A DNA stretch of 58,396 nt. It comes from Enoplolaimus lenunculus. Its lineage: Eukaryota. This document shows positions 14,201-42,829 of this stretch, in pieces. Made by a program: the position numbers and the translations under genes. Location: NCBI GenBank assembly GCA_030248215.1, contig JASANG010001128.1, positions 372,001 to 430,396 on the forward strand. Reading direction: 5' to 3'. The notes beneath the pieces are model-generated. The model saw only the letters and a program-made list of their open reading frames with translations. It had not been told where the DNA came from and made no database searches. Position 1 is the stretch's first letter. Each line of letters starts with the position of its first letter.

Positions 14201-15904
14201 ATTCACAAAATTTGTTTCAAGTAAATCATTAAGTAAAACGTCGAATTATCGACTCAAAATGTAACATGCCACGTCTCTGCATCCCGACCATTGCAACCAT
14301 TTCTAGTAAAACATTTGTAATCGTAACCCTGCATATTTACGTAGGATATTTATTACTCAAAGGTGAAGCGTGTAGACTAAGTATTTCCTGCTGCAGTTTG
14401 CATTTACATACTACATACGATAGTTGTCTTAAGAGACATGTTAGTAGTCTTGTTTGTAATGTATTTGACACAGTTTGGTTGGTTGTGCAACTATTTGATA
14501 AATTCTTTAACCTGTTTAATTTAGGTACGATACAGTTACTATTCAGAATATAGACGCGGAATGTTAAAACCACTAAGCTAATTTTATTCCGGTACTTTGT
14601 CCGGGTATTTTTGTAGTACTCGGAACTGGATCCGGAATGATTTATTGTGTAACCCCGGACCCGAAATTTTTTAAGCAAAATCCTGGATCCGGGAACCCGG
14701 AATAACCGGAATACCCGGACCCGGACATGGATGCGACTCTAGTATTTGTGCCAAAATTTCAGCGGAAACAACGTGCTGAGCATGATCTACCCCAAATTAT
14801 TTTATAGAGTATAGTGGGCATGTACCTTTTTCTAGCGGGCAATCCCACTCAATACCGCACTGCAACCAAAAACTTAAAAACAAAATTTAATTTTCAGCAC
14901 CTTGAAATATACGATACAGTGCATGTGGATTGCGTGCAATTACTTTCACCCAACACATTCCATAATCGGCTACGATATCTACCCGATGCGGTGAACTGGT
15001 TGTCTGAAATAAAAATGTCAAAGAAAATAAAACTACGAGCATTATACAGTTGAATCAAACAAAAAGTCATCTAAAATTTATGCTAGTAAAACAGATATGA
15101 AAAACAAATGTAATATAACATCAGAAGAAGCAAAAACCATTAAGCTGGTAGTCACTGGTTTTCGAGATGGGTGTAACGAATCTAAGTAATCGCAACGCAT
15201 AAAGCAATCTGCAATTCACTTCGAAAACCGATAAACACAATTCTTTAAAACACGATATATACATTTAAAATAAACGGCTTTATAAGGAACAAAACAACGT
15301 ATATATATCTTTGGAAAACTTACATTATCAATAGAAAAAGGCGTCAAAATTGACTGAACATCGGCATAATTTGAAATCGCATCAAGCAAGGCACGAAAGT
15401 GAATCAAATTTGAGCACCGAATATGACTGGAATGAATTATTGGTTTGTGTTGTTGCTACAACAAACACATTAAATGGCAAAGCGAACGGTAAGACAACGT
15501 CAAGTAGGGTCCGAACGGAAAATTCGATTCCTACCTTTTACGGATTAGCAGGTTCCAATTTCATGATTGCAAACCGGAACTGTTCGTTGTGCCATTTTGC
15601 AAACTCACTGTATGAAGTAGCCATATATTTTTAGGTACTTCTGTCATAGCTTTTCCAAACTATAAAATGAACAACTTGTCACGAGCACCACACTCGCACA
15701 AAAATGTACGTACAATGAAATAAAAGTGATGAGAACTCTAAGTTTATAACCTGGCAAAAAAACGCTCGTTCAGCAGCTATCTTCTTCGCTAGATGTTTGA
15801 CACCGACTTTTAAAGAACGTGGTGCAGTCTCTATAAGCGACGTGCAACGAGTGCTCAGAAGATCGGCTTCAGCAATCTTGAGCAAGATTATATTGTGTAC
15901 AGGA
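11202..15904 (-). CDS. C7orf25: UPF0415 protein C7orf25 homolog (~9 exons; start exon not resolved)
   Basis: Exons encode IRCSNLIHFRALL, VDIVADYGMCWVKVIARNP, GECGERSIMDHAEVFL, INLDITALFAFVSSL, FKEPILDQQAQWER, VGGSNEKRRA, IFGSGETYNAITLTANRGFVQAAYNQ|GVKLAVIVHESRALSE. These are collinear with C7orf25 motifs and have GT-AG junctions. Confidence 0.9.
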
Positions 15905-17265: not shown

Positions 17266-18386
17266 CGCAGGAGGTTTATTAGGCTTAGGTGGAATTGACA
17301 CATTTTCTAGCAAGGTAATTAGCCTTAGCGCTGCAGAGCGTACAGTTTGTACTGTAAAAAGTGTTATTTCTTTAAGGACTGCTATTTTAGTCCCTGAATT
17401 GTGAGCAAAATCCAGCTATTCCGTATTGTGGGTACAAATGTCTAAGCTATTCAAAATATATCGTTTTAGTACTCACTAATTCAATTTTAAAAACTACCAA
17501 ATAATTTTGGCCTTGCTTACAATGCTTTAATTGTTTCATTCGTTGCATTCAATTTCTGTAAAAACATTTCACACCGGTGTTTCCTGCTGAGAGATCGATC
17601 TTAACTGGAGTACAAACCCCAGTCCGTAATAACCCTCGATACCAATGTAGCGAAGTATCAAGCATACAAAATAACACAGCAACCAACCCATCCATTAAAA
17701 ATCGAAAACCGACAATACTGCTACGAAATTGCAAGTGATTGACAAAATAAAGCAACTTTATATAAGCACCATAAATAGACGAATTTCACACACCTTGGGT
17801 TTGGCTCCATTAGAAAATCTGAAACTCTACGCATTTTATTTAATATGCTGAAAGAATCCTGCTCTACATATAATGCTTTGCAAGCATACCTACATCTAAA
17901 TCAATTCGTTTGCTTGCCGTGGCCTTACTCTTCATTTTTATGCTGTTCATTGTTTCATAATAGTTGGATTAAAATTTAGCAAATGGCCGGGAATCTACTC
18001 TCTGTTATATCTATGATAACGACAATACCAATAAGCAGTTAATAGGCCGCAATGGACAACAGAGGAGCTGGTAAAGTTCTCCACCTTTCAAAAACCAACA
18101 TTTGTATGCAAGCAGATTTTGCAAGAATATATGCCCTAATAAACACTGCAAAAAATTTATTGTTCGGTTACGATAATTATTCGCTTATTGTTATGGTACA
18201 GAAAAAATAATTTGCTGCCATACTGCAAATGTGTCGTACACGTAGCTGCTGGTGTGCACTCTGCAAACTCTAATGTTTAGTGCCAAAAACGATAAAATTT
18301 GCTCGTGAGAAATCTCTTATTATTTTGGACTTTGATGTTTCTCAATGGAACCAAAAACCATAGAATTTTGTCCAAATTTCTCTTTC

Positions 18387-19850
18387 GGCCAATGTATAGC
18401 ACAGGGGCTTCCAGTTTTCCACGGTGGAAAACTTATAACCAGGAGTGTAGCGCAGCCACTCCTGTATGACGGCTAAATTTTCTGCTGATTTGGTAGGAAA
18501 ATTAAAAAATTTAATGCCTAGATTTTACCCTGGATTGGTAGGGAAATCTGAAGCATAGGTTTTGGTTGGAAAACGGGAAAAGTGGAAAATTCTAATGCCT
18601 AGATTTTCCCCTGGGTTGGTAGGGAAAATCTGAAGCATAGGTTTTGGTTGGAAAACGGGAAAAGTGTAAAATTCTAATGCCCAGATTTTCCCCTGGGTTG
18701 TTAGAGAAATCTGAAGCATGGGTTTTGGTTGGAAAATGGGAAAAGTGGAAAATTCGAATGCCTAGATTTTCCCCTGGGTTGGTAGGGAAAATCTGAAGCA
18801 TAGGTTTTGGTTGGAAAACGGGAAAAGTGTAAAATTCTAATGCCTAGATTTTTCCCCTGGGTTGGTAGGGAAAATCAGAAGCGTAGGTTTTGGTTGGAAA
18901 ACGGGAAAAGTGGAAAATTGAAATGCCTAGATATTTTCTTGGTTAGTAAGAAATATCTGAAGCAAAGGTTTTGGTTGAAAAGCGGGAAATGTGGAAAAGT
19001 GGAAAATTCAAAGGTAGGGCATAGGTTTTGGTTGGAAAACGGGAAAAGTGGAAAATTTTAATGCCTAGATTTTTACGCTGGGTTGGTAGGGAAATATGAA
19101 GCATAGGTTTGGTTGGAAAACGGGAAAAGTGGAAAATTCTAATGCCTAGATTTTTATTCTGGGTTGGTAGGGAAAATCTGAAGCATACGTTTTGATTGGA
19201 AAACGGGAAAAGTGGAAAATTCCAATGCCTAGATTTTTATCCTGGGTTGTTAGGGAATACCTGAAGCAAAGGTTTCGGTTGGAAAACGGGAAAAGTGGAA
19301 AATTCTAATGCCTAGATTTTTTCGCTGGGTTGGTAGGGAAAACCTGAAGCAAAGGTTTCGGTTGGAAAACGGGAAAACTGGAAAATTCAAGCGTAAGGCA
19401 TAGGTTTTGGTTGGAAAACGGGAAAATTAGAAAATTTTAATGCTTAGATTTACCCTGGCTTGGTAGGGAAAATCCGAAGTATAGATTTTGGTTGGAAAAC
19501 GGGAAAAGTGGAAAATTTAAAGGCCTAGATTTACCTTAGGTTGGTAGGGAAAATATGAAGCATAGGTTTTGGTTGGAAAATGGGAAAAGTGGAAAATTTA
19601 AAGGCCTAGATTTACCTTAGGTTGGCAGGGAAAATCTGAAGCATAGGTTTTCGTTGGAAAACGGGAAAAGTGGAAAATTTAAAGGCCTAGATTTACCTTA
19701 GGTTGGTAGGGAAAATCTGAAGCATAGGTTTTGGTTGGAAAACGGGAAAAGTGGAAAATTTAAAGGCCTAGATTTACCTTAGGTTGGTAGGGAATTTCTG
19801 AAGCATAGGTTTTGGTTGGAAGACGGGAAAAGTGGAAAATTTAAAAGGCC
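18387..19850 (+). mobile_element. Left arm only of a second foldback element (terminus plus ~77-bp tandem array)
   Basis: Starts with GGCCAATGTATAGCACAGGGGCTTCC, near-identical to 6715 onward. The array stops mid-unit at AAGGCC and abuts pPolB coding sequence. Confidence 0.9.
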
Positions 19851-22800
19851 TTTTTTCGTTGATGTCTTTGTCAGCTTTCCTTCTTTGATCGGAAACCTAA
19901 ATCGAACAATGTTGACACAAGTTTAATTTGCAGTATTCATAATCTGTCAGTTGTTATAGTAAAAATAATGTTTGTAATAAAACTTTTACAAATCGTACTA
20001 ATTGTCTTACCTCTTGCCCCAGGTGTTCGAATGCTGCCACCCGTTGATACTCAACAAATCTGTAAAGGCGGGTAATTTTCATCGCACACTTTTTAAGGTA
20101 GAATTTTAGCAGCGGTGTGCCTAAGAGTATCTTTGTTGCGTGGAAAGAGCCAATAAGAGAGCGGCGCGGTGTTGTCATCACATAGCCAACTCAGCATACT
20201 CTCGCATATGTTCCCCAATGTCTTCTATATTTATTTCAACATTTTTAAAAATAGGTGGCATTTCTTCCCATCGTTGTCTTGCTGCCTGGTCCCAATACGG
20301 TATTTGAACGTCAACTTCTACTATTCCAAACACTTCGTCAGCTAGAATACCGTCAACAACGTCTTTGATCGTCACGTTACTAGTGTCTTTAAATCCTGTC
20401 TTTGAGTTCTGACTAATCCAGTCTTGCCATTCAGGATCAATCGCAATCGCTTCACGTGTTTCGTCAAAACTGCACTCGGATCCAATTATAACTTCAGCGC
20501 CTAATGTCTGTAGGAACGCATGTTTCTTCTGTGTTTCTTCTTGGCGGTGCTGCATGTCATCATTATGTAAATAGCATCGGGGCATCCATGCCAGTAGCAA
20601 CCATCAAACACGATAATAATTGCCCGTTGGTTTCCGTACTTTCCAATTGGCACGTAACCATCCACTGGATACCGCGTTGCACCATTTTGGAACACTTTCT
20701 GTCCGCCATTGAATTTATGTTGAATGGTTAAATCGTCTCTGTTGAATCTTTTTATTAGCGCTCTCCGGTGGTACTCCACAAACAGAAGCTCCAAAAGACC
20801 GTACGTGTAACTTTTTGTGGCATTTAACTTTATGTCGTAGTTATGAGATATGGTTCGTAAATGTTCACTTTTTTCCATTTCAATCTCTCCTCGGGTACTG
20901 TTAACTGGAATGGGTTGTCCAACGTTGCCATAATGGGGACTCCATCGATGGGCCTCCAACGATATTGTCCTTGATCATCTGATGGATACCTTTGAACCGT
21001 TCATTGAATAGTGTGAATAACCCACCTTTCGGCAAGTGTTGCATCATTCTTTGCAAAGCTACGCCTGGCAGGCTTATTGCTTGTTTGAACATATTGATGC
21101 CCCATTCTTCGAACTGGTTAAACATTTTTTGCACCGCGGTAAGAAATGGTATTACATCCAGGTTATTGTACCACACCAACATGTCTTGCATTGTTTGGAA
21201 TTTTTCTTCACGCCAAACTTCCTTCACGTATTCGTAGTCGTCGTTGGTTATGTTTATCTGCCGAAGAGTGCTATAGTATGCTGCACGAGGCGGAAGATCA
21301 GTAACTTGCAGTTGATCCAAGCTTTCAAACCACTCATACGGCCAAAATCCTTTTCTCTGCTCCACTTGAAATGCTTTTAGAAATTTGTCGTAGCTTGTTC
21401 CCGGGCTTAAATAGTTTGTTATATCTAAAAACAGTAGATCCTCTGTAGCCAAAGACATAAACCCATTGTCTTTCTTTATGGTCTGGTGAATTTTCTCACC
21501 GTTGTAAATCAAATGAGGAATGTAGTATTGTTTAATTAGGTTTAGATCAAATTTGGCGCTGTTAAATCCCAATACTACAAGTTGTTTTAGCCACCTATAA
21601 AATCTGTTATAATACGACTTCCATTTCCTGGTTTCGTAGGCGCGGTTGCGAGCGTCGTGAAGGGCATCAGCTACATTAGCATCATTCTTTTCATGTTGAA
21701 GTAAACGTCGATATTCACGGTCGTATTGCTGGTGTAGAGTTCGTTCGGTCTGTAGTCGGTCAAACACGTCGCTGAATTGATGCTTAAGAATTGAGAACGC
21801 GGCATTACTAATTTCACAAAGATAAGCATGCATCTGCGAGACAATGTCCTCTCGTTCTCCAATAAAACACCGGGCGTCTTCATAACCGGGCACATTACTT
21901 GCGATAGATACACTCGCGGGTATTAGTTCTTTGGTGTATAAAAGCTTCTGGCCTTCGTGTTGTTCGACATTGAGCGACTTGAATCTGGCCTCAAAATCGT
22001 ATGTAGCACGAAATCGGTAAAAGTTTTCTGTAATATTGAAGCCTTCTTCGTTTAATTCCTGTTGTATCGTCTTCGTAAGTCCATAGCCGCCACCTTTGTA
22101 AATAAATTCTGTCACGTTGCCATTGCATCGTTTAAGGTGCCGCTGATGATGACTGTGATGGTTCCATATCCGATCGCATAACTCGCATCGCCAGGACTTT
22201 GTAAACTGTGGAAGATTCTTAATGTATGAAAAATGATTATCATAAAGATTTATGTTCAATGTGTCATGGAATAGACCACGTGACTGTCGTACAAGACATG
22301 CTGATGAAATAGGTGGAGGAGGTATGTCCGGAATCATAGGTTGGCTTCCTTCATTATCCGGTTCTACTCCTTCAGCATCATTTTCTTCTTCATCTCCATC
22401 ACCATTGTCTTCGTTGTCTTCCGCCATATCATCTAAAAACGATTTTACGCTTGTCTCTTCCTCATGTTCGCTTTCATCTTCTTCGGTAATGCCTTCGGCT
22501 TCTAGCTCATCTTCTTGTTCTTCTAAAAGCACTGCGCGTATCTGTGGAACTCCTTGATCTGCTTCACGAATTAATCTTTGAAGTTCTGTTTCAGGTCGCT
22601 GAACTTCTGTCTCATATACGGCAATGTTTACTTGGAACATGTCTTCTAATTTATCCAAATCGTCCATATCCACTCCATGAAAATTGGTTGTGTTTGTTTG
22701 ATTGCGCCAGTTGTTGCATAACATTGTTGTGTGAGCTTCGAATTCTGAATGGTTGCCCAATCTGTATCCATGCAACAGAGCTAGGCATCGAAAAAAGCAT

Positions 22801-23932
22801 TTGAATCGTCATATCTTCTTCCATATTTATCAGTTTCAAGCGAAATGATGCTCATTGTTTTTTATATGGTCCGGTAGCATCGGTGGGCGACCAATATGTG
22901 CATGCGCAACAAGTTTATTAACAACAACTGTCACATTAGTAATGCGGTCCACAACGAATTTGGCGTTAGGACGCTGCTGACGTGCCATTCAACAATATCT
23001 TGACCATCTAGTTTTTGTATCATGCTTTCGAAGTCTTTTTTGAAAGACACAAGCATCGGAGTATTGAAAAACCGCGTGTTGTTGCTGCTGTAGAAAAACA
23101 CTTTTTCATTAGTTAAAATATTGCGTAGAACAAAACCAAAATTCAGATTCCACTTAGCTCTGTGCTTCTGAACAGCGTACACTTTTCGAACAACTTGTTT
23201 AATTTCTTCTTCAGATGCTCTTTGTAATCTAAAGTTAAACTTGTCCTGAATCGGCCTTTTTTGATGATAATGTGTTCGAATTTGATGCCAGTTGGCTTTT
23301 AAAAGCTCATCTGTGCCGCCGTATAACACTGAGTCCGGACATGGTAGTGAATTTGTGGTTAGCATCTTCTGCTTTAATGACATCTGCGGAAACTTTTTCG
23401 GTGGCTGGTCTTCATTCGTCTGCATCGATTTCATTTGTCTTTTTTGTGAAAGTGTTTCATGGTCTTTGAGGTGCTCTGTCAATTTATCTTGGCACGAAAA
23501 GTTTTTGTGACATCTCGGACATGTAAGTTTTGGTTCTTTATGAATAGTTCTTATGTGTTGTAGCAAGCTCTTCTTCGCTGTAAAACTCTTTCCACACCTT
23601 CTGCATTCGATTTCTGTAAAAATAACAACAAATTCTCACATGTGTTAATAGTTAATAGATTAAATAGAAAAGTGCTTTTGACCTCTAGACCACGTATTTA
23701 ATAATTAATTATATGACTGATGACACTGTTTGTTCCTGGCATATAGCCTTAGATTTCAAAATCAGTGAAGCATTATGTATGCACGATCAATCATACGGCA
23801 TGTGGTTAATTGCTAACATTTCTGGCTCTCTAAATCAGTGAAGCGTTATTAATGCACTATCTGTCGCAAATAGTTAAGTAAAGTACACGTCATCTATGTT
23901 TGAACGAGCTTACTGTTGACCTCATCAATCAT
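19851..23932 (-). pseudogene. pPolB: Protein-primed family B DNA polymerase, frameshifted and 3'-truncated, with two N-terminal C2H2 zinc fingers, an acidic insert and a VSR-like nuclease insert
   Basis: CRRCGKSF...HIRTIH, CPRCHKNF...HLKDH; ExoI ATYDFEA; ExoII VLGFNSAKFDLNLI; KGFWPYEW; ExoIII WYNNLDV; IVGGPS; VDGY...FDGCYWHGC; FGIVEVDV; MPPIFKN; RRSLIGS; VSDQRRKADKD. The KxxxNSxYG and DTDS motifs lie beyond the truncation. The start exon 23932-23914 is inferred. Confidence 0.92.
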
Positions 23933-24146
23933 GCTTAATGGAGTCACTAGCTATGATTAATTGCTTTCAAAATCAGTGAAGCGTTATTAATGTACCATCT
24001 GTCGCAAATAGTTAAGTAAAGTACACGTCATCCATGTTTGAACGAGCTTACTGTTGACTCATCAATCATGCTTAATGGGGTCACTAGCTATGATTAATTG
24101 CTTTCAAAATCAGTGAAGCGTTATTAATGCACCATCTGTCGCAAAT
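23757..24146. promoter_or_regulatory. Direct-repeat array in the divergent intergenic region of the Polinton (putative bidirectional promoter/enhancer)
   Basis: AAATCAGTGAAGC(A/G)TTAT at ~23759, 23832, 23970 and 24107; two near-identical ~138-bp units. Regulatory function is inferred from position only. Confidence 0.55.
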
Positions 24147-24208
24147 TTCTTAGCTATTTAAAGGTCAAGTCATTTATAAAATTGATTCATTTGTAGCTTA
24201 AATTTACA

Positions 24209-24979
24209 ATGGACGGTCGCATCATTTCTCATATATTTTACTCGACTATGGACCAGCAGGATTGTGTAAGCTGGTGGAATGAGAGATCGGGTAGGATTAC
24301 AGCTTCAAATTTTGGTCGGGTTCGAAGTGCTGCATCTGACAAAGTTCTCAAAAAGTTGGTTTGTAATATTAATACACCAGCTAATACTTTCATACCCACT
24401 CCTTGTTTAGTTGGTATAACTAAAGAAGAGAATGCAAAACAGGCATACATAAGGCACTATTCTAAAGAGTTGAATGTTCCAGTAACAGTGCACAAGTGCG
24501 GTCTTTGTGTTCCACTTCAAGCTCCCTTTATAGGTAGTTCTCCAGACGGTATTGTCACTTCACCACAGTTTGCACAACCAAGAGTGCTAGAGATCAAGTG
24601 TCTCTATGATACGGAACATATCCCACGCAGACTATTAGACATTGGGTTGAGTCGTAAGTCTAGATTCTACTGTAAAATTGATAAATCTACTGGAAAGTTT
24701 ACGTTGAAAACAACCCACAAATATTATTCACAAATTTTAGGTGAACTCGCCATTACGGCTTTACCTGTAGCAGATTTGGCACTTTATGCTCCAAGAACGA
24801 AAGAAATAAAAGTTGTAACCGTTCATTTTAATCGTGAGCACTGGCAAGCTCTTTTTGAAAAAATTAGGTATTTTTACGACAACTTCATCAATGGAAAGAT
24901 TTTCGCTCAACCCCCAGAACCGAGTCGAGCAACCACTATCTCGGAAATCGTTGAGACTGAACCTATGCAGATTAACTAA
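24209..24979 (+). CDS. YqaJ/lambda-exonuclease family (PD-(D/E)xK) nuclease
   Basis: WWNERSGRITASNFG; GITKEENA; CGL...PFIGSSPDGIV; LEIKC; HKYYSQILGEL. Intact 256-aa ORF. Confidence 0.9.
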   Translation: MDGRIISHIFYSTMDQQDCVSWWNERSGRITASNFGRVRSAASDKVLKKLVCNINTPANTFIPTPCLVGITKEENAKQAYIRHYSKELNVPVTVHKCGLCVPLQAPFIGSSPDGIVTSPQFAQPRVLEIKCLYDTEHIPRRLLDIGLSRKSRFYCKIDKSTGKFTLKTTHKYYSQILGELAITALPVADLALYAPRTKEIKVVTVHFNREHWQALFEKIRYFYDNFINGKIFAQPPEPSRATTISEIVETEPMQIN

Positions 24980-25265
24980 TCCGTTACCAATCATTCATTT
25001 CCGTCATATATCGTCTGTTCATTTTAAAAACGTGAAACCAAACAAATCGTATTTCGACCTTAATAAGTCACAGTTAAAAAAGCTCATATATCACACTTAC
25101 CTTAACGCTAATGATATTTTTCAACAGTCAGAAGACAAATTTGCAATTACTATGAATGTAGGTAGCGCGATAGGTGTAGTGAAGCCTGAGCACCGTACGT
25201 CAGACACTTTGAGAATAATCTACGTATCCACCGGTCACAGAATAATAACAGCCTTTCCTTATTAA
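24891..25265 (+). CDS. Small protein resembling bacterial polymorphic-toxin RNase domains (BECR/EndoU-like); start uncertain, overlaps the YqaJ gene
   Basis: Pattern HIxxxHF...KSYF...helix...VGxxIG...LRIIY...IITAFP at the C-terminus. Confidence 0.5.
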   Translation: MERFSLNPQNRVEQPLSRKSLRLNLCRLTNPLPIIHFRHISSVHFKNVKPNKSYFDLNKSQLKKLIYHTYLNANDIFQQSEDKFAITMNVGSAIGVVKPEHRTSDTLRIIYVSTGHRIITAFPY

Positions 25266-25443
25266 TGAATATTACTAATATATTGGGTTGTTAATTAATA
25301 TTTGATTTATGCTCTATTTCTATAAGCTGTATTATAAAATTATAGTGTGCTTATCTAAAATAAATACAAAAGTAGCTTTTTAGTGCAATTACTTATTGTG
25401 TAGCGTTATTTCGCATCTATCCATTATTTACGGGCACATCATT

Positions 25444-25914
25444 ATGAATAACCATTTTTCAAAAAGTGATCTTAACAATTTATGCGATGCAATAATGGCA
25501 CTTGTTAAAGAAAATTGCGCGGGGTGTCAAGAACAACGCTCGATGGAAGAATTTTGGGAGCATGGTGGTTTCACGGGGTGTCTGTATGCGTTTGATTTTC
25601 ACGCCGATGTCTATATAGATTGTGCTATTCAAACACTGTCTTTATCATACTCAGCGCGAGATCATGCAATTCGTGTCATTTCTGAGTACTCCTACGCCGT
25701 GTATCAGCATACACACCCGTTACCTGTGGCAGATAACTTAGAAGACCAAATGTTTCGGGAAATGAACTTCGAGCATTCTGTAGAAGTGATAGCAACACCA
25801 GAAGATTATCCTCGTATAGTGAAGAAACTTTTACAGTTACGCGGAAATAACTCAGATGACTACAAAAACTATTTATCAAAAACACTGAATGAGCTAATTT
25901 TGCTACGGCCCTAA
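25444..25914 (+). CDS. Polinton accessory protein with CxGC...H...GCL putative metal-binding motif
   Basis: ENCAGCQEQRSMEEFWEHGGFTGCL. Intact ORF followed by AATAAA. Confidence 0.65.
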   Translation: MNNHFSKSDLNNLCDAIMALVKENCAGCQEQRSMEEFWEHGGFTGCLYAFDFHADVYIDCAIQTLSLSYSARDHAIRVISEYSYAVYQHTHPLPVADNLEDQMFREMNFEHSVEVIATPEDYPRIVKKLLQLRGNNSDDYKNYLSKTLNELILLRP

Positions 25915-26061
25915 CTGTACAAACTTTGATTATGATATTTTATTACTTTGCAAATATGGTAATTATGTGCAGTAACAATGGAAACTGTAAAGCGTATTTT
26001 TGAATAAATAACCATTAAAAAGGTCTTCTATACTGCAATCAGCAAGTTTCTGATATAAAAC

Positions 26062-26415
26062 ATGGAGCGTGATAGGGTAATTGCAATACTTTTGGCAACA
26101 GTTTCTTTATTATTGTCCATCAGCAATATAGGATACTTGATTGAATATACCCAGAATTATGATAACAGTGTTGTGGAGATGGGTTATTGTCAGCAGTATT
26201 ATTTGGGGATAGAAACAAAAGTAACCATTTGTTCACCACATATTTTTATTCGAAAAAGTAATGAGAAATTTCAAATCTTGCCTATGGAGTTTAGAAGACT
26301 AAAGAAAGTTGCTTGTAAGGATCATCACACTTATACTGAGCAGTATTTAAACGCTACGGAGGGTAAAAGAGTAGTTCTAAAATCAAATGAAGTACGGGAT
26401 TTATGTAAGTTTTAA
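26062..26415 (+). CDS. Small protein with N-terminal signal/TM helix, possibly with a PC4-like beta domain
   Basis: Hydrophobic VIAILLATVSLLLSISNIGYLI. YLGIETKVTIC...IFIRK...ILPMEFRRL only loosely echoes PC4. Confidence 0.55.
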   Translation: MERDRVIAILLATVSLLLSISNIGYLIEYTQNYDNSVVEMGYCQQYYLGIETKVTICSPHIFIRKSNEKFQILPMEFRRLKKVACKDHHTYTEQYLNATEGKRVVLKSNEVRDLCKF

Positions 26416-26463
26416 AAGAGCTAAACTGTAATAGCATCACATTGTCTCAAAAACTAATTATTT

Positions 26464-27536
26464 ATGGAAAAGTTATACTTTGATCCCGCTAACCCTCTAG
26501 GACTAAGCTCTATTCAAAATTTATATAAAGCGGCTAAAGAGAATGGACTAGATGTCACACTAAACGATGTTAGACAGTTTTTATCGGGCGAGCCAGCTTA
26601 TACACTTGTCAAAAAACGTCCCAAGAAAAATTTCAAACGCGTAAGATACATAGTTTCAGACCTTTATGATATATTTCAAAGCGATTTGGCTGATATGCAA
26701 GCACTAGCTAAGTTTAATGATGGCTACAAGTATATTCTAGTGGTTATCAATTGCTTTTCTAAGTTTTGTTGGGGTGTTCCTTTGAAAACCAAGACCGGTG
26801 AAGAAATAGTTAAGGCTCTTAATGCAATTTTAGATCCATTATTACCAGAAAAACCTAGAAATTTCATAGTAGATAGAGCAAAAGAACATTACAGTAAACC
26901 GATCACTGAATTATTTAAATCAAGTGGTATCAAATTGCTTTACACCACTAATGACGAGTCTAAAACCGTTTTTGCAGAAAGAAAAATCCGTGACATAAAG
27001 CGTAAAATTTATATATACCTAAAAAACATAATACTTGGCGGTATATTGATGTTCTACCAGATATCATAAAATCACTTAATGCGCGCAAGGTACGCACCAC
27101 AGGATTTAGACCGATAGATGTTACTAGGCAAAACGAACATGTTGTACGTAAGAATTTATACCCCAGCACTTTCAGTCGGCATCCCAAAACGTATAAGTTC
27201 ACTGTAGGAGACAGAGTAAAACTATTGAAACGACCCTTTCCGTTCGCAAAATCATTTTATCCAAACTGGACAAAAGAAGAATTTTTAGTTGACCAACAAA
27301 TCCCATCTTCCCCACCAACTTATCGCATTAAGTCTATTACGGGGGAGAGTATACTTGGCATATTCTACGAACAAGAAATGCAAAAAGTTATACGAAAAGA
27401 AGAAATTTACCAAATTGAAAAAATTATTAAATGTCGCAAAACTAAAACAGGTGCAACAGAGTTTTTAGTTAAATGGAAAGGTTATCCCGCAGATCAATCC
27501 AGTTGGGTTAAGGAAAAAGACATAAACAAGCTTTAA
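26464..27536 (+). CDS. Retroviral-like (rve) integrase with C-terminal chromodomain; one -1 frameshift in the A-run at ~27021-27026
   Basis: LYFDP; FQSDLADM; YILVVINCFSKF; IVDRAKE; AERKIR. After adding one A: KHNTWRYIDVLP...FTVGDRV...FAKSFYPNWTKEEF...FYEQEMQKV...YQIEKII...FLVKWKGYP...SWV. Confidence 0.93.
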
Positions 27537-27550
27537 TCGTTGCTTATATT

Positions 27551-28081
27551 ATGCATTGGAAAGTAGTAAATACGACTATTTGTGGAACATTTGAGAAATG
27601 TATAAATTTGTATGATTTGGCTTTGCAGTTAAAATTGCAATATAATCCTCGTAAATTTAGTGGTATAGTTTGGCACCCAGAATTAGGCGGTTGTTGTTTG
27701 ATTTTTGGATCGGGAAAATTCACCATTGTTGGCCTTAATAATCCCTTAGTAGCAAAATCAATTGTTGGGGAAATCAAAAAGCTAATCGGTGATTGTTCTC
27801 ATACGTATTACATGAAAAATTACGTGGTTTCCTTAGATACTAATCATAATTTCAATCTTCACAAGCTATGCAGTGTGCTATTCGCAGAACGGTATAACGT
27901 GGTATTCGATCCTCACGATTTAATGCCTCCGCTAATGCTAAGATTAGATCGAGCAACAGTATTAATACACCACACCGGTAAAGTTATCGTTACGGGAATT
28001 AAAAAGTACAAACATATTGAACCGCTTATACACCGTATCAATACCATTATTGTACCACACCATGTATGTAGTAATCGATAG
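27551..28081 (+). CDS. Divergent TATA-binding protein (TBP)-like, two-repeat core only
   Basis: Repeat 1: VVNT, INL, YNPRKFSGIVW, CLIFGSGKFTIVG. Repeat 2: MKNYV, FNL, FDP, VLIHHTGKVIVTG. The 176-aa length matches the TBP core. Confidence 0.88.
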   Translation: MHWKVVNTTICGTFEKCINLYDLALQLKLQYNPRKFSGIVWHPELGGCCLIFGSGKFTIVGLNNPLVAKSIVGEIKKLIGDCSHTYYMKNYVVSLDTNHNFNLHKLCSVLFAERYNVVFDPHDLMPPLMLRLDRATVLIHHTGKVIVTGIKKYKHIEPLIHRINTIIVPHHVCSNR

Positions 28082-28385
28082 AGTTAATCCGGAATTTTCG
28101 TATATAGTTGCACATCTACCACAACCTCTAGATTCGTCAAAAGCAGAAATAGCAGTAGTTCAGTGTAGTTTACCCCAAAAAGTACGGTTTCTACAAACAG
28201 GTTGCATTGAACCTAGTATCTACAACGATGGAAGTATGCGTTTTTTACATTCCAATACAAAATTTAGTCCTATTCCGCTTTATCATAAGCTGAGATACAG
28301 TAAGCTCGACACTATACTAATAGATACAGGAGTAACATTGTCAGAAACAGATAAAGTCTTAGTTGTTCTTCATGTAAATTATTAA
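28062..28385 (+). CDS. Minor capsid protein (penton/PX), minimal 107-aa version
   Basis: LPQPLD...EIAVVQCSLP; CIEPSIYND...RFL; PLYHKL...LDTILI; terminal VLVVLHV. Positioned upstream of the MCP. Confidence 0.7.
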   Translation: MYVVIDRVNPEFSYIVAHLPQPLDSSKAEIAVVQCSLPQKVRFLQTGCIEPSIYNDGSMRFLHSNTKFSPIPLYHKLRYSKLDTILIDTGVTLSETDKVLVVLHVNY

Positions 28386-28419
28386 AAAGACTAAATAACT
28401 ATAGTGTAGTATATTTGAA

Positions 28420-28602
28420 ATGGATCAAGCTCTTATCCGGCTACTAGCAGGCAGCTCTAGGCATTCAGTTCCCCTAAAGTTAAGTAAAGTAAAGGGGCGC
28501 CGTAAAACTATTAAAAAGGCACGTAAAACCAACAAGAACAAAATAAGTAGGCAAAAAACTAGCAACAAGACAAAGAAAAGAAGGGTCAAGAAATTATATT
28601 AA
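28420..28602 (+). CDS. Small Lys/Arg-rich protein, putative virion DNA-condensing core protein
   Basis: 60 aa with a highly basic C-terminal two-thirds, located between the penton and MCP genes. Confidence 0.65.
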   Translation: MDQALIRLLAGSSRHSVPLKLSKVKGRRKTIKKARKTNKNKISRQKTSNKTKKRRVKKLY

Positions 28603-28604
28603 TC

Positions 28605-29960
28605 ATGTCTCTTCATCCTCAACCAAAATGCAGTGTTTCAGGATTAGATTTTACTAGCTTACCACCAATACAAGATGAAATTAACAGTGTCCAAGTTGTT
28701 GAAAGTGCTTGTTTTACGGGTTTACCATCAGATGATTACCTAACACCCTTAGAATTTAGGTTTGGTGGCTCTTCGGATTATATTGATGTTGACTCAATTA
28801 TGTTATATTTAAAAGTAGAAATAATAAAGAAAGACAACAGTTCTTCCCAAGAAAAACGAGATTCTCAACCAGCACCAGCACCAAGCAAATCAGCGAAAAA
28901 GAGGCCTAAAAGGCAAGCAGGATTAGGAAACGTGGACGGTCCAGTAAATCTTTTCCTATATTCTTTGTTTGATAGAGTTGAACTTAAAATTGCAGGCAAA
29001 TCAGTATCCCTTGAGCAGTCAAATTACCAGTACATAATGTATACCCTTTTTCACTTATACTTTCCGGCAACCGTACGAAAAACTCTTCTTCAACCAGCAA
29101 TTTATGAACCCGATCAACCGTATAGTTTTGACAGTGAACCAGACGCAGTTGCTCAAAGAACTTCAATGCTAGATACAAATAAAGGCGAAATATATGGCAG
29201 AGTTTTCACAGATTTTCTTAACACGGGGAGATTTTTACCGGGTATTGTACCCTTAAGTTTAATTTTTCATCGAGCTAAACCCAACTTTTGCATTATGGAA
29301 AATTCAAAGAAAACTTATAACGTTAAGATTAAAACGGCAAAGCTTTATACACCATATGTAACCTTAACTACCGCAAGCTTAACAAACTATCACAAAATTT
29401 TGTCCACGTCGGGTTTCAAATATCCGATAGTACGCCACAACATTAGCACCAAAGCGCTGGGAGTGGGAGATATGAATGTTTCATGGTCGTTTATTAGTAA
29501 TGGAAAGATACCAAGAAAGATAGTGTTAATGCAAGTAGGCGCATCAGCTTATAACGGACAAATTGACAAAAACCCGTATAATTTTGAAGATTTTGGGTTA
29601 CAAAGTTTGCAGGTGTTTGTTAACAAAAAGTCATTTCCAAGTAGTGTACCGCTAACTTTTGAACGATTTGGAGATATATACCGCACGTACCTAAATTTCT
29701 TTAAGGCTACAGATTACGTTAATTTAGATCCAGGCTTTGATGCATTTGGCTATGGGGCAGGTTACTTTATGATACCAATAAGTTTAACGAGAGATGGGTC
29801 AACAAATTGCGGCTACCACTCCAACCCAGAGCATGGAAACCTTGATATAGAGTTAGTTTACGCAAAACCATTAACAGAACCCATAATGTTACTACTTTTG
29901 TCAGAGTACGATAGTGTTTTAACTATAAAAGAAAATGGAGAGTTCAGTTGGCAGCAGTAA
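28605..29960 (+). CDS. Major capsid protein (double jelly-roll, Polinton PY/hexon)
   Basis: LDFTSLPPIQ; PLEFRFGGSSDYID; PVNLFLYSLF; RFLPGIV; IPRKIV; AYNGQIDKNPYNF; GNLDIELVYAKPL; SEYDSVLTI. Intact 451 aa. Confidence 0.92.
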   Translation: MSLHPQPKCSVSGLDFTSLPPIQDEINSVQVVESACFTGLPSDDYLTPLEFRFGGSSDYIDVDSIMLYLKVEIIKKDNSSSQEKRDSQPAPAPSKSAKKRPKRQAGLGNVDGPVNLFLYSLFDRVELKIAGKSVSLEQSNYQYIMYTLFHLYFPATVRKTLLQPAIYEPDQPYSFDSEPDAVAQRTSMLDTNKGEIYGRVFTDFLNTGRFLPGIVPLSLIFHRAKPNFCIMENSKKTYNVKIKTAKLYTPYVTLTTASLTNYHKILSTSGFKYPIVRHNISTKALGVGDMNVSWSFISNGKIPRKIVLMQVGASAYNGQIDKNPYNFEDFGLQSLQVFVNKKSFPSSVPLTFERFGDIYRTYLNFFKATDYVNLDPGFDAFGYGAGYFMIPISLTRDGSTNCGYHSNPEHGNLDIELVYAKPLTEPIMLLLLSEYDSVLTIKENGEFSWQQ

Positions 29961-30647
29961 CGTAGCTACCACTTTAGACACACCAATATTACTAGAGCAA
30001 CCGTATAATGTATTGTGACCGGCTCTACTCAGTCTGGTAAATCGTATTTTGTACGTAAACTATTGGAACATTGTGATTCAGTTCATACAACACCATTTAA
30101 ACGCATATATTATTGCTATGGCATGCCAGAGGAAGAGTTATTTATCGTAAGCGCTCCCACTCTTCAAATCATACCAAACTTTCCCGATTTTATTTTTGAA
30201 GAAACAGATATTCCAGTTCACACACTCATAATCCTAGACGATTTTATGGATAAATTAATAGGAGACAAAAGGTTAATCACCCTATTCACTAAAATGAGGC
30301 ATCGGTTAGTATCGGTAATTTTGATTGTTCAGAATTTATATTTTTGCCCGAAAGTTGGTCCATGTATCCGCAGAAACACTGATTATTACTTTCTTTTCCA
30401 AAATAGGGGAGACCAGGCAATGATATCTAACCTTAGCAGCAGAATGTTTCCAGGCAAAAAGAATTATTTACTTGGAGCACATAAAAAATCATTAAAAAGG
30501 CAATACGGTTACCTAATGGTTAATCTCAAACCTAATATTCCCCCGGAGTTTGTGCTTTCAGAAGGGATATTACCGTGTGAACAATATTATGTTTATCTTT
30601 CATTGTTTTTCGTTAATGAATTATGTATTTTCTATAATTTAAGATGA
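29935..30647 (+). CDS. A32/FtsK-HerA packaging ATPase; true ATG probably 29935, with a 1-nt deletion near 30008
   Basis: Walker A GSTQSGKS; Walker B LIILDDFM; LFTKMRH; ILIVQN; IRRNTDY; YGYLMVNL. Confidence 0.92.
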
Positions 30648-30997
30648 GTAGTGCGTTAAAAGAAAATTTATCTACTCTCCAGTACTTACAAACAGCACCA
30701 AAAGCGTATGTAAAACAAATTCTATCAAAACCTACAAATAGTTTGGTACAAGTATTATCAGAAATTTGTAGAAACCTCGAAGTAGGAAATATAAAACTTA
30801 GACCAGAACAAAAATTGTGGGTTAAAAAACAAATTCGAAAAATTTTCGCATTAGGATCTAAACGAACATCACTAGCTCGTAAAAAATTAATATTAAAAAG
30901 GGTAGGTCACGATATAGTTCCTAAACTTTTAACGTTAGCTAAGAAAACATTGAAATCTATATTTGACTATAAACATGGTGAAGGAAATATTTTATGA
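30644..30997 (+). CDS. Conserved small basic Polinton virion protein (E..xN...GN family)
   Basis: LVQVLSEICRNLEVGNIKL...K-rich region...amphipathic IVPKLLTLAKKTL. ATGA overlap with the ATPase stop codon. Confidence 0.7.
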   Translation: MSSALKENLSTLQYLQTAPKAYVKQILSKPTNSLVQVLSEICRNLEVGNIKLRPEQKLWVKKQIRKIFALGSKRTSLARKKLILKRVGHDIVPKLLTLAKKTLKSIFDYKHGEGNIL

Positions 30998-31464
30998 ATG
31001 CTGTATATAACATGTCTAGTGATCCTAAAAAATTCGCATTAGATGAAGAATCGTTATTTGAAAAGTTAAAAGCATCGCGCGCACAATCTTCGCAACAACA
31101 ACAACCAACATCAAGCAATAACTCAATCCAGATTGTAAACGGCGCTACAGCAACAACAACGTTACAAGATATTGTAGAAGTCTTACCTCGGCAACTTCGG
31201 AATAAAGCAAAAATTCTTGCACATTACCTTGAAGACTACGCTACCGTGAACAATAAGGAGCGCATTATTTACCCAGACGGCACAGTAGGATCACACTTTA
31301 TTGATTTAGCACGATATTTTACGTCTTCACCGATACTCAGAATTCCTCATCCACCGGATGCAACACGATTCGCTGAAGTCATTAAAAAAGCAGGCGTACC
31401 AGCAAGTGCAATCACGAGAAATGGATCAAAACAACACGGTCGAAAGCAACTATGGGAATTTTAA
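30994..31464 (+). CDS. Conserved Polinton protein of unknown function
   Basis: LPRQLRNKAKIL...GSHFIDL...F...AGVPASAI motif recurrent in Polintons. ATGA overlap with the previous gene. Confidence 0.7.
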   Translation: MNAVYNMSSDPKKFALDEESLFEKLKASRAQSSQQQQPTSSNNSIQIVNGATATTTLQDIVEVLPRQLRNKAKILAHYLEDYATVNNKERIIYPDGTVGSHFIDLARYFTSSPILRIPHPPDATRFAEVIKKAGVPASAITRNGSKQHGRKQLWEF

Positions 31465-31972
31465 TCCGATAGAACATAAACGAATCATTACTGGACTTGG
31501 TGGCAGCAAGCGTTTGTTATTTTTTACAGGATGGTCTCCACTATCAAACTTTCACGTTGCTAAATTCACAGTTAAAGGAATTGGCTATCACAGTGCAGAA
31601 CAGTACTATCAAGCAAAGAAGGCATATCATTTCGGTGACTACAACTTATACTATCGCATTCTACAGTGTTAGTCTCCATCTCGAGCAAAAGAACTCTCTC
31701 AGGAAATTGACGGCTATGATCCAGTAGAGTGGGAGAAACAACAGGACAATCTAATGCTAGAAACTTTACGCGCAAAATTTAACGGAAACGCGTTACTCAA
31801 ACGACAACTCACTGACACGGGTGACATAGAATTGCTAATCGCCACACAACACGACCAATATCTTGGCACAGGTCTACCGCCATATGATCCAAGCTATGAA
31901 ACAAAAGAGGAATTCCCCGGAAAAAATATGCTTGGAAAGTTGCTTATGATTGTTAGAAGCGAACTAAAATAA
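31421..31972 (+). pseudogene. NADAR (YbiA-like) family hydrolase with a single in-frame TAG at 31670-31672
   Basis: FF...PLSNF; SAEQYYQAKKA..FGD; P..AK; M....AKF; LTDTGD; D...GTG; PGKNMLGKLLMIVR. Both ORF pieces are in the same frame. Confidence 0.88.
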
Positions 31973-32175
31973 TTATTTTAATATCTTTTAAACATTGTGT
32001 TATATGGTTTCATTTGTTTTAGAATAAACGAAAAAAATTATCTGCGCTTCTATGTGAAGCAACCCCGTTTAACGCTACACCTTAAAACAATGAATTCTTT
32101 ATATTAATATTTCAGCTATATATTTATACTTTAAACTTAACATACTTATAATTTACGTGCAAACCAATATATACG

Positions 32176-32730
32176 ATGGCGAAACATATTCAAATAATTC
32201 AACTTCTCCAAGCTAATCACCAGCTCAACGTACACTCCATAGTTTACGCCCTACACCAACACATGTCCTTAGATACGGCGCAAGATTTGTGGTGTCCAGT
32301 GTTTGGTGACATGCAGAACAGGTTTTACAGTTGGCTTCTACAGCAGTCCGGTGATGTATTTCAAGATTTCGTAATAGCACTTTACACTGAAGGCCAGCTA
32401 ACGTTGTACCGAGTGTTCGTGGCAGCGTGTAAGCAATTTGATTATCACATTGAAGAACCTAAAGCTATATCTCGAGCTGATTATATTCAGAACTACTTAG
32501 TTAACGGACAATATTTATTTTGGAGTAAAGAATTTGAACGTGAGCAGAATGAGAGTGACTTGTGTGGATTGGGCGCACGGTTTTTTATCAAGGAATTATT
32601 GAAGAAAAAAGACAAAATACAACGATTACTTTGCATGCCAGGGTCTCTGTCTGAGCGTTTTAAAGCGATGGAAAAAGATTATGAAGCTATTGATATCGCA
32701 CTAGAAATACAGGACTATTTTGTTGTTTAG
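32176..32730 (+). CDS. Polinton accessory protein with N-terminal CARD/death-fold-like region
   Basis: LNVHSIVYALHQ...FYSWLLQQSGDVFQDFVIALYTEGQLTLYRVF resembles CARD helices 2 and 4-6. Intact ORF followed by AATAAA. Confidence 0.55.
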   Translation: MAKHIQIIQLLQANHQLNVHSIVYALHQHMSLDTAQDLWCPVFGDMQNRFYSWLLQQSGDVFQDFVIALYTEGQLTLYRVFVAACKQFDYHIEEPKAISRADYIQNYLVNGQYLFWSKEFEREQNESDLCGLGARFFIKELLKKKDKIQRLLCMPGSLSERFKAMEKDYEAIDIALEIQDYFVV

Positions 32731-32833
32731 ATTGATCTATTTTATGCCTTGTAATATAAAGAAAGAAATAAATTCATTGCGTATTTATTGTTGTCTGTGA
32801 TTTTCTCAGTTCAATATAGTCAAAGATATACTT

Positions 32834-33427
32834 CTTTTACCGTTCTTGAAAATTCCCACTAGTTCTCGAGTTATGGCCCAAAAACCTCAAAATTTCAATT
32901 TTCCCGATTTTTCAACCCTCCATATCTCACCCCCTAGGCCCCATAGCCAAAAAATAAAATATATAATTTCAAGAGTTGTAACACCCCACCACATTGCAAA
33001 AGACCCCATCCCGATATCTCTATTTAGTAAAAAGTTATTAACAATTAAAGAAAGTTGATTTTCACAGGTTTTCCCCCTAAAAATTATCGAAGGTTACATA
33101 GCTAATATCGAAAAAAATTTATTAGCTTATTTGATAGAGCAAAAAATTCTAGGGAATACGTCTTTTACCGTTCTTGAAAATTCCCACCAGTTCTCGAGTT
33201 ATGGCCCAAAAACCTCAAAATTTTCAATTTTCCCGATTTTTCAACCCTCCATATCTCACCCCCTAGGCCACATAGCCAAAGAATAAAATATGTAATTTCA
33301 AGAGTTATAACACCCCACTACATTGCAAAAAACCGTATCCCGATATCTATTTCCAGTAAAAAGTTATTAACAATTACAGAAAATTGATTTTAACAAGTTT
33401 TACCCCTAAAAATATCGAAAATTACAT
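32834..33427. repeat. ~328-bp tandem duplication, possible remnant of the Polinton subterminal/TIR repeats
   Basis: CTTTTACCGTTCTTGAAAATTCCCAC...TCTCGAGTTATGGCCC starts at 32834 and again at 33162. Confidence 0.7.
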
Positions 33428-33853
33428 CACGTTTCTCAGGGGACACTGTAGACCATGGTAGATTAGTTTATTTCTGTGATACAGCAACATCAACAAACAA
33501 AGTTGGTATGCACAATCAACAAGAAAACGAAATTTTTTATTTAATCGGAAATTAGCGCTTTAAAAGATATTATGTTCTTTGTGTGGAGCAATAATAAAGT
33601 TTTTGCAATATCGTTAGTTATGACTAGGTATTGAAACACTTAATATAAAGTGTGCTGTTAAAACTTAGTAATTCGCGCTTATGTACATGAAGCTGCCAGT
33701 GTTGTATATTTAGACAATTTTCTATATTGTGGAGGTTTTGGGTACTATTTCGAAAATACTAAGTCTTTTGGTTGAACTTAATTACCATTTTTGTTAGTTT
33801 CAGCGGACTTTTGTTCGTTATTAATATGCTTCAGTTTGCAATTAAATCATCAA

Positions 33854-38011: not shown

Positions 38012-38772
38012 GTCGTACTAATGGTGAATCGTCAACTAATCGCTGTGACCAGTGCCAACGTCACCACATCCAACGAATACTGATACAGAATTTCGAGTCA
38101 GAGGTCCGTATCACCACATTGTTTCATTTGCTGAGACGGTGTTGGACCCAAAATGAGCTGGTGTTTCATAGTTTGGGAAGTATTTGACCCTGGCACCACT
38201 TTGGTTGAAGACTGGGTGATGCTGTTACTTTATACGCCGCGATATTTTGGTGACGACGCCGATCTGATCCTTGCAAGAAACGCACCTGACGTTTCCTATT
38301 AATAAGCTTACTCTATTGCAGTCCCGCAGAAAAACGTTCCGCCCCTGATCTTTTACATTGGCCGTGTTGTCTCCTGCTCACGCTGATGGACCTGCCTTTA
38401 TTTTGCAGCTTCATTGGTTCATTGTCGGGTATTCCACAGTGACCAGGTACCTATTGATTCGGCGATTGGATTCACTCTTATTAGACATCGCAGGGAACAC
38501 ATATCAGTTCCAGACAGTCCATTTGCCTGTAGATTCTTTATTGAAACCCTTCTGTCCGTGCAGACTGTCGCAGAATTAATTGAGTTAAAGACTCAGTTTA
38601 TCCACAGTTCAAGTGTTTTGACTTCTGTTACGAAGGTTGACGTAAAACTACAGACCTTGCGGTTGAGTATTTCAATTTACGAAGCGATTAGACTGGATCC
38701 GACGTGATGATGACAGCGCTTCCGCCATTCAACAAGCCTTCCAACGCTAAGAAATTCAGTGTAGCCTAATCT

Positions 38773-38982
38773 GACCAATGTATAGAACAGGGCCGGAACA
38801 GTAGTATAAGCATATTCCTAAGCTTATGCCTACGCCTAAGCCTAAAGCGTAAGGATGAGACTATTCCTAAGCTTAAGCCTAAGCCTAAGCCTAAGGCTAA
38901 GCCTAAAAGTTAGTATAAAGCTTAGACTTACTCTATTACAGCCCCGCAGGAAAACGCTCCGGCCCTGTTCTATACATGGGTC
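38773..38982. mobile_element. MITE (same family as 11042-11214) with TAAGCC array
   Basis: TIR GACCAATGTATAGAACAGGGCCGGA/TCCGGCCCTGTTCTATACATGGGTC; TSD CCTAATCT/CCTAAGCT. Confidence 0.85.
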
Positions 38983-41533: not shown

Positions 41534-42829
41534 ATGAAACAATTAAAGCTTACACAGCTACGCTTCATTGGACTTGCGATTTTCATATTGGAGGGTAAAC
41601 TATAATAATTATATAATTATTGACTTAAAATCGTTTCATATTAGGAATGTTACGGATGTGGATGTTTCAAAATTTTCTGATGTTTATGCGGATTTTTTGG
41701 CTTTCCAAAAGCGGACGCTTATGTTTTTCATCGTTTTCCAAGCTTCCAAATTTGGTCGTCATGAATACATCCGTTTTAATACACTGGCAAAAATGAATTT
41801 GAACATTTTTCACAAGAATATTTTACTACTTTGGCTAAGCCGCTGCCCAGCAAGCTTACAACACTGCTTAACGTTTCTTTGTGCAAATTTTTAAAATTCC
41901 ACAGAAAAAAATTTCAAAGGTACTGGGACATTCATGCCTTGTAAAACGCACAAATTTTATCCAACCAAATCAATCCTTTTTTCGTACTTTGCGTTGTATA
42001 AATGTTTCGGCCAGTGTAAAGAACAGGGGTGGAACAGTATTATAAGCATATTCCTAAGCCTAAGCCTAAGCGTAAGCCAAGGAAAAAATTGCCTAAAGCT
42101 GTTAAGCTTACTCTTTTCTAGTCCCACAGAAAAACGTTCCGCCCCTGATCTTTACTCAAAGCCGAATTTCTCTTGTTGCCAACTTAAGAAAGTTTCAAAA
42201 AATCCCTACGCCCTTGCAAGTTTAGTTTTAAACTTTTTCCTCATTTTTCAGTATTCCTCTTTGATTTGGTACAATGTGACGATTTCGGTTTACACAGTCG
42301 TATCCGCATCGGTGGTCACTCACGCGGCACGACCACTGGCGAGGGACACAAACAAACCGGGACGACTCACAAACAGGCTGGAACCGCCACCGAGATTCAA
42401 ACTCAACCCGGCCTCGGGTCACCTTTCGTCGGGATCATCCAACCAGTGCAACAAGGCGTCGCACCTGCAGTGGCACCAGGACAAAACCTTACAACACCTC
42501 AGGGCACAGGAGCCGGAACTGGTTTCTATCCGGAACTTGTCATGAATAACCGGGGCAGCGACCCAACCAGATACGTATACAATCCTTATTGGTTTGTGCC
42601 AGAGCTTAGTTCAGCAAGCGTTCAGCGTCGCGCGTTCCTTGGAAATCCTACAACGAATCCGTTCAACAATTTGGTTTACAATCCAGCGTTTGGAGCATTA
42701 TTTCCCGGTTTAATCGGAACCGGAGTTTCAAATATTAATCCGAAACTTCGCTCTAAACACAAGCATAAGCATGAGGCTCTGCCGTTGATCCGGTTACCGG
42801 ACGCTCCTGAAGAGAAGCCGATTCCTTAA
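41534..42829 (+). CDS. Two-exon secreted orphan protein (exons 41534-41594 and 42252-42829)
   Basis: A phase-1 GT-AG splice builds the signal peptide MKQLKLTQLRFIGLAIFILEVFLFDLVQC, followed by a G/T/P-rich mature region with two VYNP motifs. Confidence 0.7.

Follow-up and report, generated by a model that had tools for sequence, protein, structure and literature searches.

A decayed Polinton with TBP, YqaJ and NADAR genes in the genome of Enoplolaimus lenunculus

We analysed a stretch of 58,396 nucleotides from Enoplolaimus lenunculus (contig JASANG010001128.1 of assembly GCA_030248215.1, positions 372,001 to 430,396 of the forward strand), referred to below as the window and numbered from its first letter. 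It is animal-type genomic DNA with a G+C content of about 38%, in which intron-split host genes flank a Polinton on both sides (135 of the 162 flank frames were scanned, repeat-derived frames being left out). A first-pass annotation had described a Polinton/adintovirus-type element, and pPolB, a retroviral-type (rve) integrase (INT), a packaging ATPase and a major capsid protein (MCP) were indeed all found. The chromosomal copy is dead: it is a decayed, left-truncated Polinton (Maverick; Polintoviricetes), unable to replicate. Three of its accessory genes, TBP, YqaJ and NADAR, appear to belong to a family with diverged sister copies. The features on which this account leans are the following (ORF, open reading frame; aa, amino acids).

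18386..19851 (+): host element of 81-83-bp tandem repeats (TRF), outside the Polinton, abutting the cut end of pPolB
19957..23635 (-): pPolB with N-terminal C2H2 zinc fingers and a VSR-type insert
23786..24177: 138-bp repeat, about 2.8 copies, in the divergent intergenic region; putative, likely promoter region
24209..24979 (+): YqaJ/lambda-exonuclease-family nuclease, open frame (PF09588, E 6.8e-11, 43 bits against a cut-off of 22)
26464..27536 (+): INT, retroviral-type (rve), with C-terminal chromodomain, in two pieces (PF00665, E 1.8e-9; PF00385, E 4.1e-14)
27551..28081 (+): divergent TBP with two repeats (PF00352, E 1.4e-20)
28062..28385 (+): 107-aa ORF, candidate shortened minor capsid protein
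28420..28602 (+): 60-aa lysine/arginine-rich ORF preceding MCP
28605..29960 (+): MCP, 451 aa, open frame
29935..30647 (+): A32-like packaging ATPase, frameshift near the 5' end (PF04665, E 6e-7)
30644..30997 (+): 117-aa conserved Polinton ORF, core (profile from 18 loci, E 7e-16; seven loci by phmmer)
31421..31972 (+): NADAR interrupted by an in-frame stop codon (PF08719, E 6.7e-6 and 7.2e-21 for its two pieces; also NCBIfam)
32812..33427: two direct repeat units at a spacing of 328-329 bp (91.6% over 273 nucleotides); apparent right end, candidate terminal-repeat array

The Polinton and its breaks

Fourteen rightward genes occupy positions 24209-32730, with 93% of the sequence coding and gaps of -89 to +203 nucleotides; INT, ATPase and NADAR, although broken, each count as a single gene here. 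The block diverges from the leftward pPolB at 19957-23635, so that the tightly packed, co-oriented arrangement seen in the first pass stands, as does its estimate that about half of the genes are accessory: seven of the fourteen are non-core and seven are core or likely core. A Pfam search with 22 frames returned zinc fingers, YqaJ, rve, chromo, TBP, A32 ATPase and NADAR.

The core genes have clear relatives. pPolB has 266 homologs at E<=0.001; it is 37-40% identical to zinc-finger pPolBs from unnamed contigs and from marine invertebrates, the named ones being Branchiostoma, Pinctada, Patiria, Asterias and Mytilus. Using pPolB, we fetched a comparison set of 81 loci, 19 of which reach MCP and 18 INT. 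The VSR-type insert (GCYWHG at 20602) gives weak matches to 14 related loci, and a GCxWHG insert is present in 117 of the 120 top pPolB homologs. MCP matches the protein at the MCP position of a Polinton contig, L001 (E 5e-43), and has related proteins in 19 loci; at E<=0.001 it has 3463 relatives, the best 34-35% identical, and no match among PDB sequences. The ATPase matches that of the same contig (E 1.5e-28) and has 22 related loci. Position and inspection by eye make the 107-aa ORF a candidate minor capsid protein, and a minor capsid profile built from 13 sequences gave no match to it. The 60-aa lysine/arginine-rich product is likely a DNA-condensing core protein. The N-terminal half of pPolB also contains a long acidic low-complexity insert, at 22330-22540 (-), which is unaligned in homologs.

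Four genes are broken. pPolB is split into six frame pieces that span residues 24-1100 of a 1390-aa homolog (P0001), and a search of the window for the C-terminal motifs B and C (residues 1116 and 1215 of the homolog) found neither. Frameshifts disrupt INT and the ATPase, and a stop at 31670-31672 interrupts the NADAR frame. For comparison we had three sequencing runs, X1, X2 and X3, from one organism, one study and two samples, whose contigs were aligned to the window at 80% likeness. X1 and X2 contigs are identical to positions 19860-23888 over 4029 nucleotides, with 0 differences, so the pPolB breaks are genuine and not assembly errors. The replicating virus proposed in the first pass does not describe this copy.

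The cut end of pPolB abuts the tandem-repeat host element at 18386-19851, and no pPolB remnant was found to the left of that element, which may be responsible for the loss of the left end. Its own left end is 96.5% identical to the copy at 6714. There are three copies of this host element in the window, one of them inverted (6714-8107, 8550-9350 and 18386-19851). On the other side, the repeat at 32812-33427 has no inverted partner in the window, the left end of the Polinton being lost. The runs contain many variant contigs of this repeat, two of which link it with the end of the 184-aa ORF, the last in the row, and the repeat is therefore part of the family's end. A profile of the maturation cysteine protease, a typical though not a universal Polinton gene, from 16 related loci gave no match in 19800-33600 (best E 2.6); the gene could have sat in the lost left part.

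Accessory genes and their sister copies

The TBP assignment is confirmed by Pfam (73 bits against a cut-off of 22.9, in two stretches), NCBIfam, the TBPs of the PDB and Atlas (0.96). In TBPs, four phenylalanines intercalate DNA; when the protein is aligned to the archaeal TBP 2z8u, the first-repeat pair (F36 and F52) is retained and the second pair is replaced by M125 and H140. Among the 81 loci, TBP stands beside INT in one, L054 (MOXH01000060.1; PF00352, E 8.5e-27), and is 33% identical to that of the window. Since the MCP of this locus falls outside the capsid clade of the window, TBP is not a marker of the window's lineage.

YqaJ is further matched by PHROG 149/434 and TIGR03033, and has SPDG and EIK motifs, which we take to be of the PD-(D/E)xK type. 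It occurs in none of the 81 related loci, a weak negative because most of these loci are short and only 19 reach MCP.

NADAR matches its profile over positions 11-62 and 66-163 in two pieces. Its similarity to YbiA-type NADAR N-glycosidases (E 3e-8 to the Phytophthora enzyme 8BAU, 4e-4 to E. coli YbiA 2B3W) includes, by eye, an E...K pattern in the N-terminal piece that matches E43/K50 of the Phytophthora protein. In contrast to these enzymes, the window NADAR has an internal stop and several replaced columns: aligned to 8BAU, the column of the acidic catalytic residue (E125/D171) is not acidic and R79, R93 and W133 are replaced, with W89 and D130 retained (residue roles as given in the accessible part of PMC11543638). 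A broken NADAR remnant also lies 3 kb upstream of the related pPolB in one of the 81 loci, L033; there, L033:1374-3417 (+) comprises the broken NADAR, an RPA-C-like ORF and a CxGC ORF. We found no literature report of NADAR in Polintons. Iyer et al. (PMC9503650) describe the domain in phages, large DNA viruses and invertebrate RNA viruses, and the portion of that paper available to us leaves Polintons unmentioned. Finding NADAR in a Polinton would add these elements to the viruses with ADP-ribose counter-measures.

Are these accessory genes chance captures? The first-pass annotation had taken their absence from sister copies as the sign of that, and sister contigs, all from one study, do cover them. 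Contigs less than 99% identical to the window number 453 of 675 in X1, 365 of 534 in X2 and 234 of 335 in X3, and all 30 bins are covered. In all three runs a 708-nucleotide contig, about 88% identical, connects NADAR with the 184-aa ORF, and another links the ATPase (30586) to NADAR (31551); further contigs span YqaJ, the ORF at 25444, INT and TBP. The indels of the window are not common to all contigs of other copies, which means that some of the decay is peculiar to the window copy. Synonymous changes make up 16 of 35 coding differences between copies, against 8.4 expected (p 0.003), with 7 of 15 in core genes and 9 of 20 in non-core genes (named accessory genes 6/14, ORFs without a name 3/6). 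This excess, together with the coverage by sisters, argues that the accessory genes are a property of the family and not chance captures.

The five-part toolkit of the first pass (TBP, YqaJ, NADAR, 'RNase-like' and 'CARD-like') holds for the three members recognised by Pfam; the last two labels obtained no significant profile or fold match. They had been given to the following ORFs.

24891..25265 (+): 124-aa ORF, function unassigned ('RNase-like')
32176..32730 (+): 184-aa ORF, predicted all-helical ('CARD-like')

Neither ORF has a significant match in Pfam, PHROGs, NCBIfam, PADLOC or PDB sequences; one PADLOC row (E 0.016) that appeared in the search was unrelated. Single-sequence models were poor (pLDDT 38.7 for the 124-aa ORF and 42.9 for the 184-aa ORF), and Foldseek gave no match at E<=0.001 for either low-confidence model. 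With the pLDDT 38.7 model of the 124-aa ORF, the best Foldseek values were E 0.72 in the PDB and E 0.055 in BFVD, the latter to an unnamed protein. Compared with an EndoU/BECR-type small RNase, a fold with catalytic histidines, the ORF gave no profile match. Searched by tblastn, this ORF matched nothing in phages or plasmids, and two genome-contig matches were put down to chance as they fell outside called frames.

With the pLDDT-43 model of the 184-aa ORF, death folds make up five of the 50 top VIA-align rows, and Z stays below 5 for all 48,161 chains. The best death fold is the caspase-1 CARD (Z 3.6, root-mean-square deviation 3.7, 74 aligned, residues 56-145), again on the pLDDT-43 model, so that the modelled similarity gives a hint only. 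Atlas returned no usable match for this ORF, and our literature search found nothing linking a Polinton with a CARD or death domain. At L054:16687-16986 (-), beside TBP, lies a 100-aa ORF with a death-domain look by eye and no Pfam or NCBIfam match, and L070:7485-7832 (+) is an ORF with a BIR (IAP) domain (Pfam E 2.4e-23) about 2 kb from a related pPolB.

Relatives and reading of the family

The MCP of the window falls in a separate, unnamed 22-row clade with SH-aLRT support of 100 (quick IQ-TREE, 63 rows, midpoint root), which excludes all 17 MCPs from the loci fetched by pPolB. Its ten closest clusters derive from short, unnamed metagenome contigs. pPolB nests among VSR-motif pPolBs (FastTree, 61 rows, without outgroup), on a long branch (0.87) beside two unnamed proteins, a join flagged as unsure. 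A distinct capsid lineage is plausible from these trees, both built without Repbase or adintovirus references; the best MCP identity is 35%. Scans of viral contigs with MCP, TBP, pPolB, YqaJ and an MCP alignment found nothing, and a pPolB alignment found one contig, L001; word-based homolog searches with MCP and TBP also found nothing.

The closest described elements are the VSR-type pPolB2 Polintons of the marine nematode Trissonchulus and of molluscs (Jeong et al., 10.1101/2023.08.22.554363), which share the GCxWHG VSR-type pPolB insert, INT, ATPase and MCP. The pPolB2 label rests here on motif and host range. Unlike those elements, the window yielded no protease or fusogen, and its MCP forms part of another clade; the accessible text of that study names none of TBP, YqaJ and NADAR. 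Adintoviruses and MELD viruses (Starrett et al., PMC8502044), as far as the available part of the paper describes them, are animal elements that likewise combine pPolB and an rve integrase with a packaging ATPase and a capsid, and that vary in their accessory genes. In contrast to them, no adenain protease was found in the window and no PLA2X, gasdermin-like or Oncoid gene was identified. L054 resembles the window in its ZnF/VSR pPolB, INT-chromo, ATPase, MCP, two-repeat TBP by INT (with HTGK in both proteins) and small unassigned ORFs. It differs by protease and PC4-like genes, all four TBP phenylalanine columns, another gene order and an MCP outside the clade, and has no NADAR or YqaJ in its 18.3 kb.

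The accessible portions of PMC8502044 and 10.1101/2023.10.06.561300 describe animal Polintons as having accessory genes of patchy occurrence, some of them related to apoptosis, and the part of a coral polintovirus preprint available to us lists patchy cargo with VLTF3, exonucleases and endonucleases. YqaJ appears as a label in a figure legend on algal Polinton-like viruses, the part of that work to hand. It is not in the available main text of PMC8502044, and neither NADAR nor YqaJ is in the one supplement searched, although figures may list such genes. Searches for the terms TBP and YqaJ found neither in PMC11161782 nor in two 2026 preprints, whose figures and bioRxiv supplements may list such genes. 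The available text of PMC8502044 has TBP as a label in the legend of Fig. 5 only, for MELD viruses of the non-animal dataset and related elements. The gene combination and the capsid clade look undescribed, as the first pass had thought of the combination, and the component parts are known.

What could this gene set have done? We think it probable that the window holds the fossil of a recently mobile Polinton family. In such a family TBP would have served the element's own late genes, DNA ends would have been processed by YqaJ, and ADP-ribosylated nucleic acid would have been handled by a NADAR of altered chemistry, three functions that we infer. The family has several diverged copies in the host animal, with TBP, YqaJ and NADAR probably inherited as a selected cassette. 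Most likely TBP marked the rightward (late) promoters of the element for host RNA polymerase II, as opposed to a takeover of host transcription. The probable task of YqaJ would have been DNA-end resection, either in replication or when copies recombined with one another, and NADAR probably bound or removed ADP-ribose from nucleic acid, its chemistry being uncertain with the E125 column changed.

A number of observations weigh against this. Preset promoter words are rare upstream of the 14 genes (TAAGA before one, TATAAG before none, ATAAAC before two), and the best p of 0.014 is one of 18 uncorrected tests (nine words, two search windows); likewise, no motif from a de novo search for 5-6-mers upstream of the 14 genes survives correction. 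The 35 ORF differences stem from the 40 best-supported of about 1,390 rows and are not a random sample, the four named accessory genes alone give 6/14 synonymous, and the three runs are one study and may include the source of the window DNA. The pPolB arm (19860-24180) forms one unbranched contig and the right arm many near-identical variants (97-98%), a contrast suggesting that the closest sisters may lack pPolB or differ in it. Finally, since no protease was found, the family may not have been able to form mature particles on its own.

A rival reading is a derivative, non-autonomous or long dead, whose right arm was passively amplified (in trans or by segmental duplication) and whose accessory genes are functionless passengers at present. 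The four broken genes of the window copy, the missing protease in the profile search and the changed catalytic column of NADAR all agree with this, as do the near-identical sisters that apparently have no pPolB arm and one X3 contig that departs from the window sequence leftward at 24074. A presumed SMART-type adapter at a loose end in X3 was considered as a sign of cDNA and rejected, since the run covers intergenic and flanking DNA. Loss or exchange of pPolB in the closest sisters, possibly at the 138-bp repeats, would fit; such events are documented for nematode Polintons in the accessible text of 10.1101/2023.08.22.554363. We nevertheless regard a passive derivative as unlikely, because synonymous changes are in excess between copies, the frames of MCP, TBP, YqaJ and most other genes are open, and diverged pPolB contigs do exist in the runs, with joints at 20662-20772 and 22238-23062.

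Somewhat less likely again is an active virus lineage, of which the window copy would be an integrated relic, with a five-part kit for host takeover and counter-defence acting on transcription, ADP-ribose reversal, end processing, RNA cleavage and death signalling. Three of the five labels hold, death folds take five of the 50 top structural rows of the 184-aa ORF, viral NADARs have been proposed to counter ADP-ribose immunity (in the available part of PMC9503650), and Bcl2, IAP and gasdermin-like genes are among the accessory genes of adintoviruses, according to the accessible text of PMC8502044. However, the RNase and CARD labels lack significant support, NADAR is interrupted and altered with a non-acidic E125 column, and TBP, found outside this lineage as well, does not have to target host genes; 'host takeover', as the first pass put it, was an overstatement. 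Also unlikely is an undescribed, protease-less clade of invertebrate Polinton viruses, still mobile in the host, with its own capsid type, a minimal minor capsid protein and private TBP-directed late transcription, and with a remodelled NADAR, a death-fold decoy and a small RNase set against ADP-ribose and cell-death defences.

As a fossil, the window copy adds a new capsid clade and a new gene combination and not a new mechanism. Polinton-encoded TBP is barely published (we found one figure-legend label), yet it recurs across unrelated Polintons, which suggests that such small viruses may steer host RNA polymerase II. Herpesviruses and giant viruses steer this polymerase too.

Other frames and host surroundings

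The three remaining rightward ORFs are the following.

25444..25914 (+): 156-aa ORF with a CxGC...H...GCL pattern
26062..26415 (+): 117-aa ORF with a hydrophobic N-terminal stretch
30994..31464 (+): 156-aa ORF, weakly common to one related Polinton, L028 (E 1.9e-4)

Relatives of the four unnamed non-core ORFs were found in none of the 81 loci fetched by pPolB. The ORF at 25444 looked by eye like the CxGC ORF of L033, and that at 26062 like a TM-PC4-like ORF of L054; neither likeness was significant. Three of the four changes between copies in the ORF at 25444 are synonymous.

Directly left of the Polinton, an intron-split host gene with DUF5614 and DUF1308 domains lies at 11326-15455 (-), presumably a C7orf25-like gene. 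To the right, a ubiquitin-like/UBA host gene (46020-49280, -) and a Ras-family GTPase gene (52106-53711, -) are present in exons. A weak C19orf12-like match (E 0.0036) at 3480-3785 (-) is perhaps a host exon. A dispersed repeat with runs of CCTAAG/GCTTAG hexamers, which we take to resemble the nematode telomere unit and which hint weakly at the host group, occurs at 11040-11220, 38300-38980, 40850-41040, 42007-42150 and 43470-44000.

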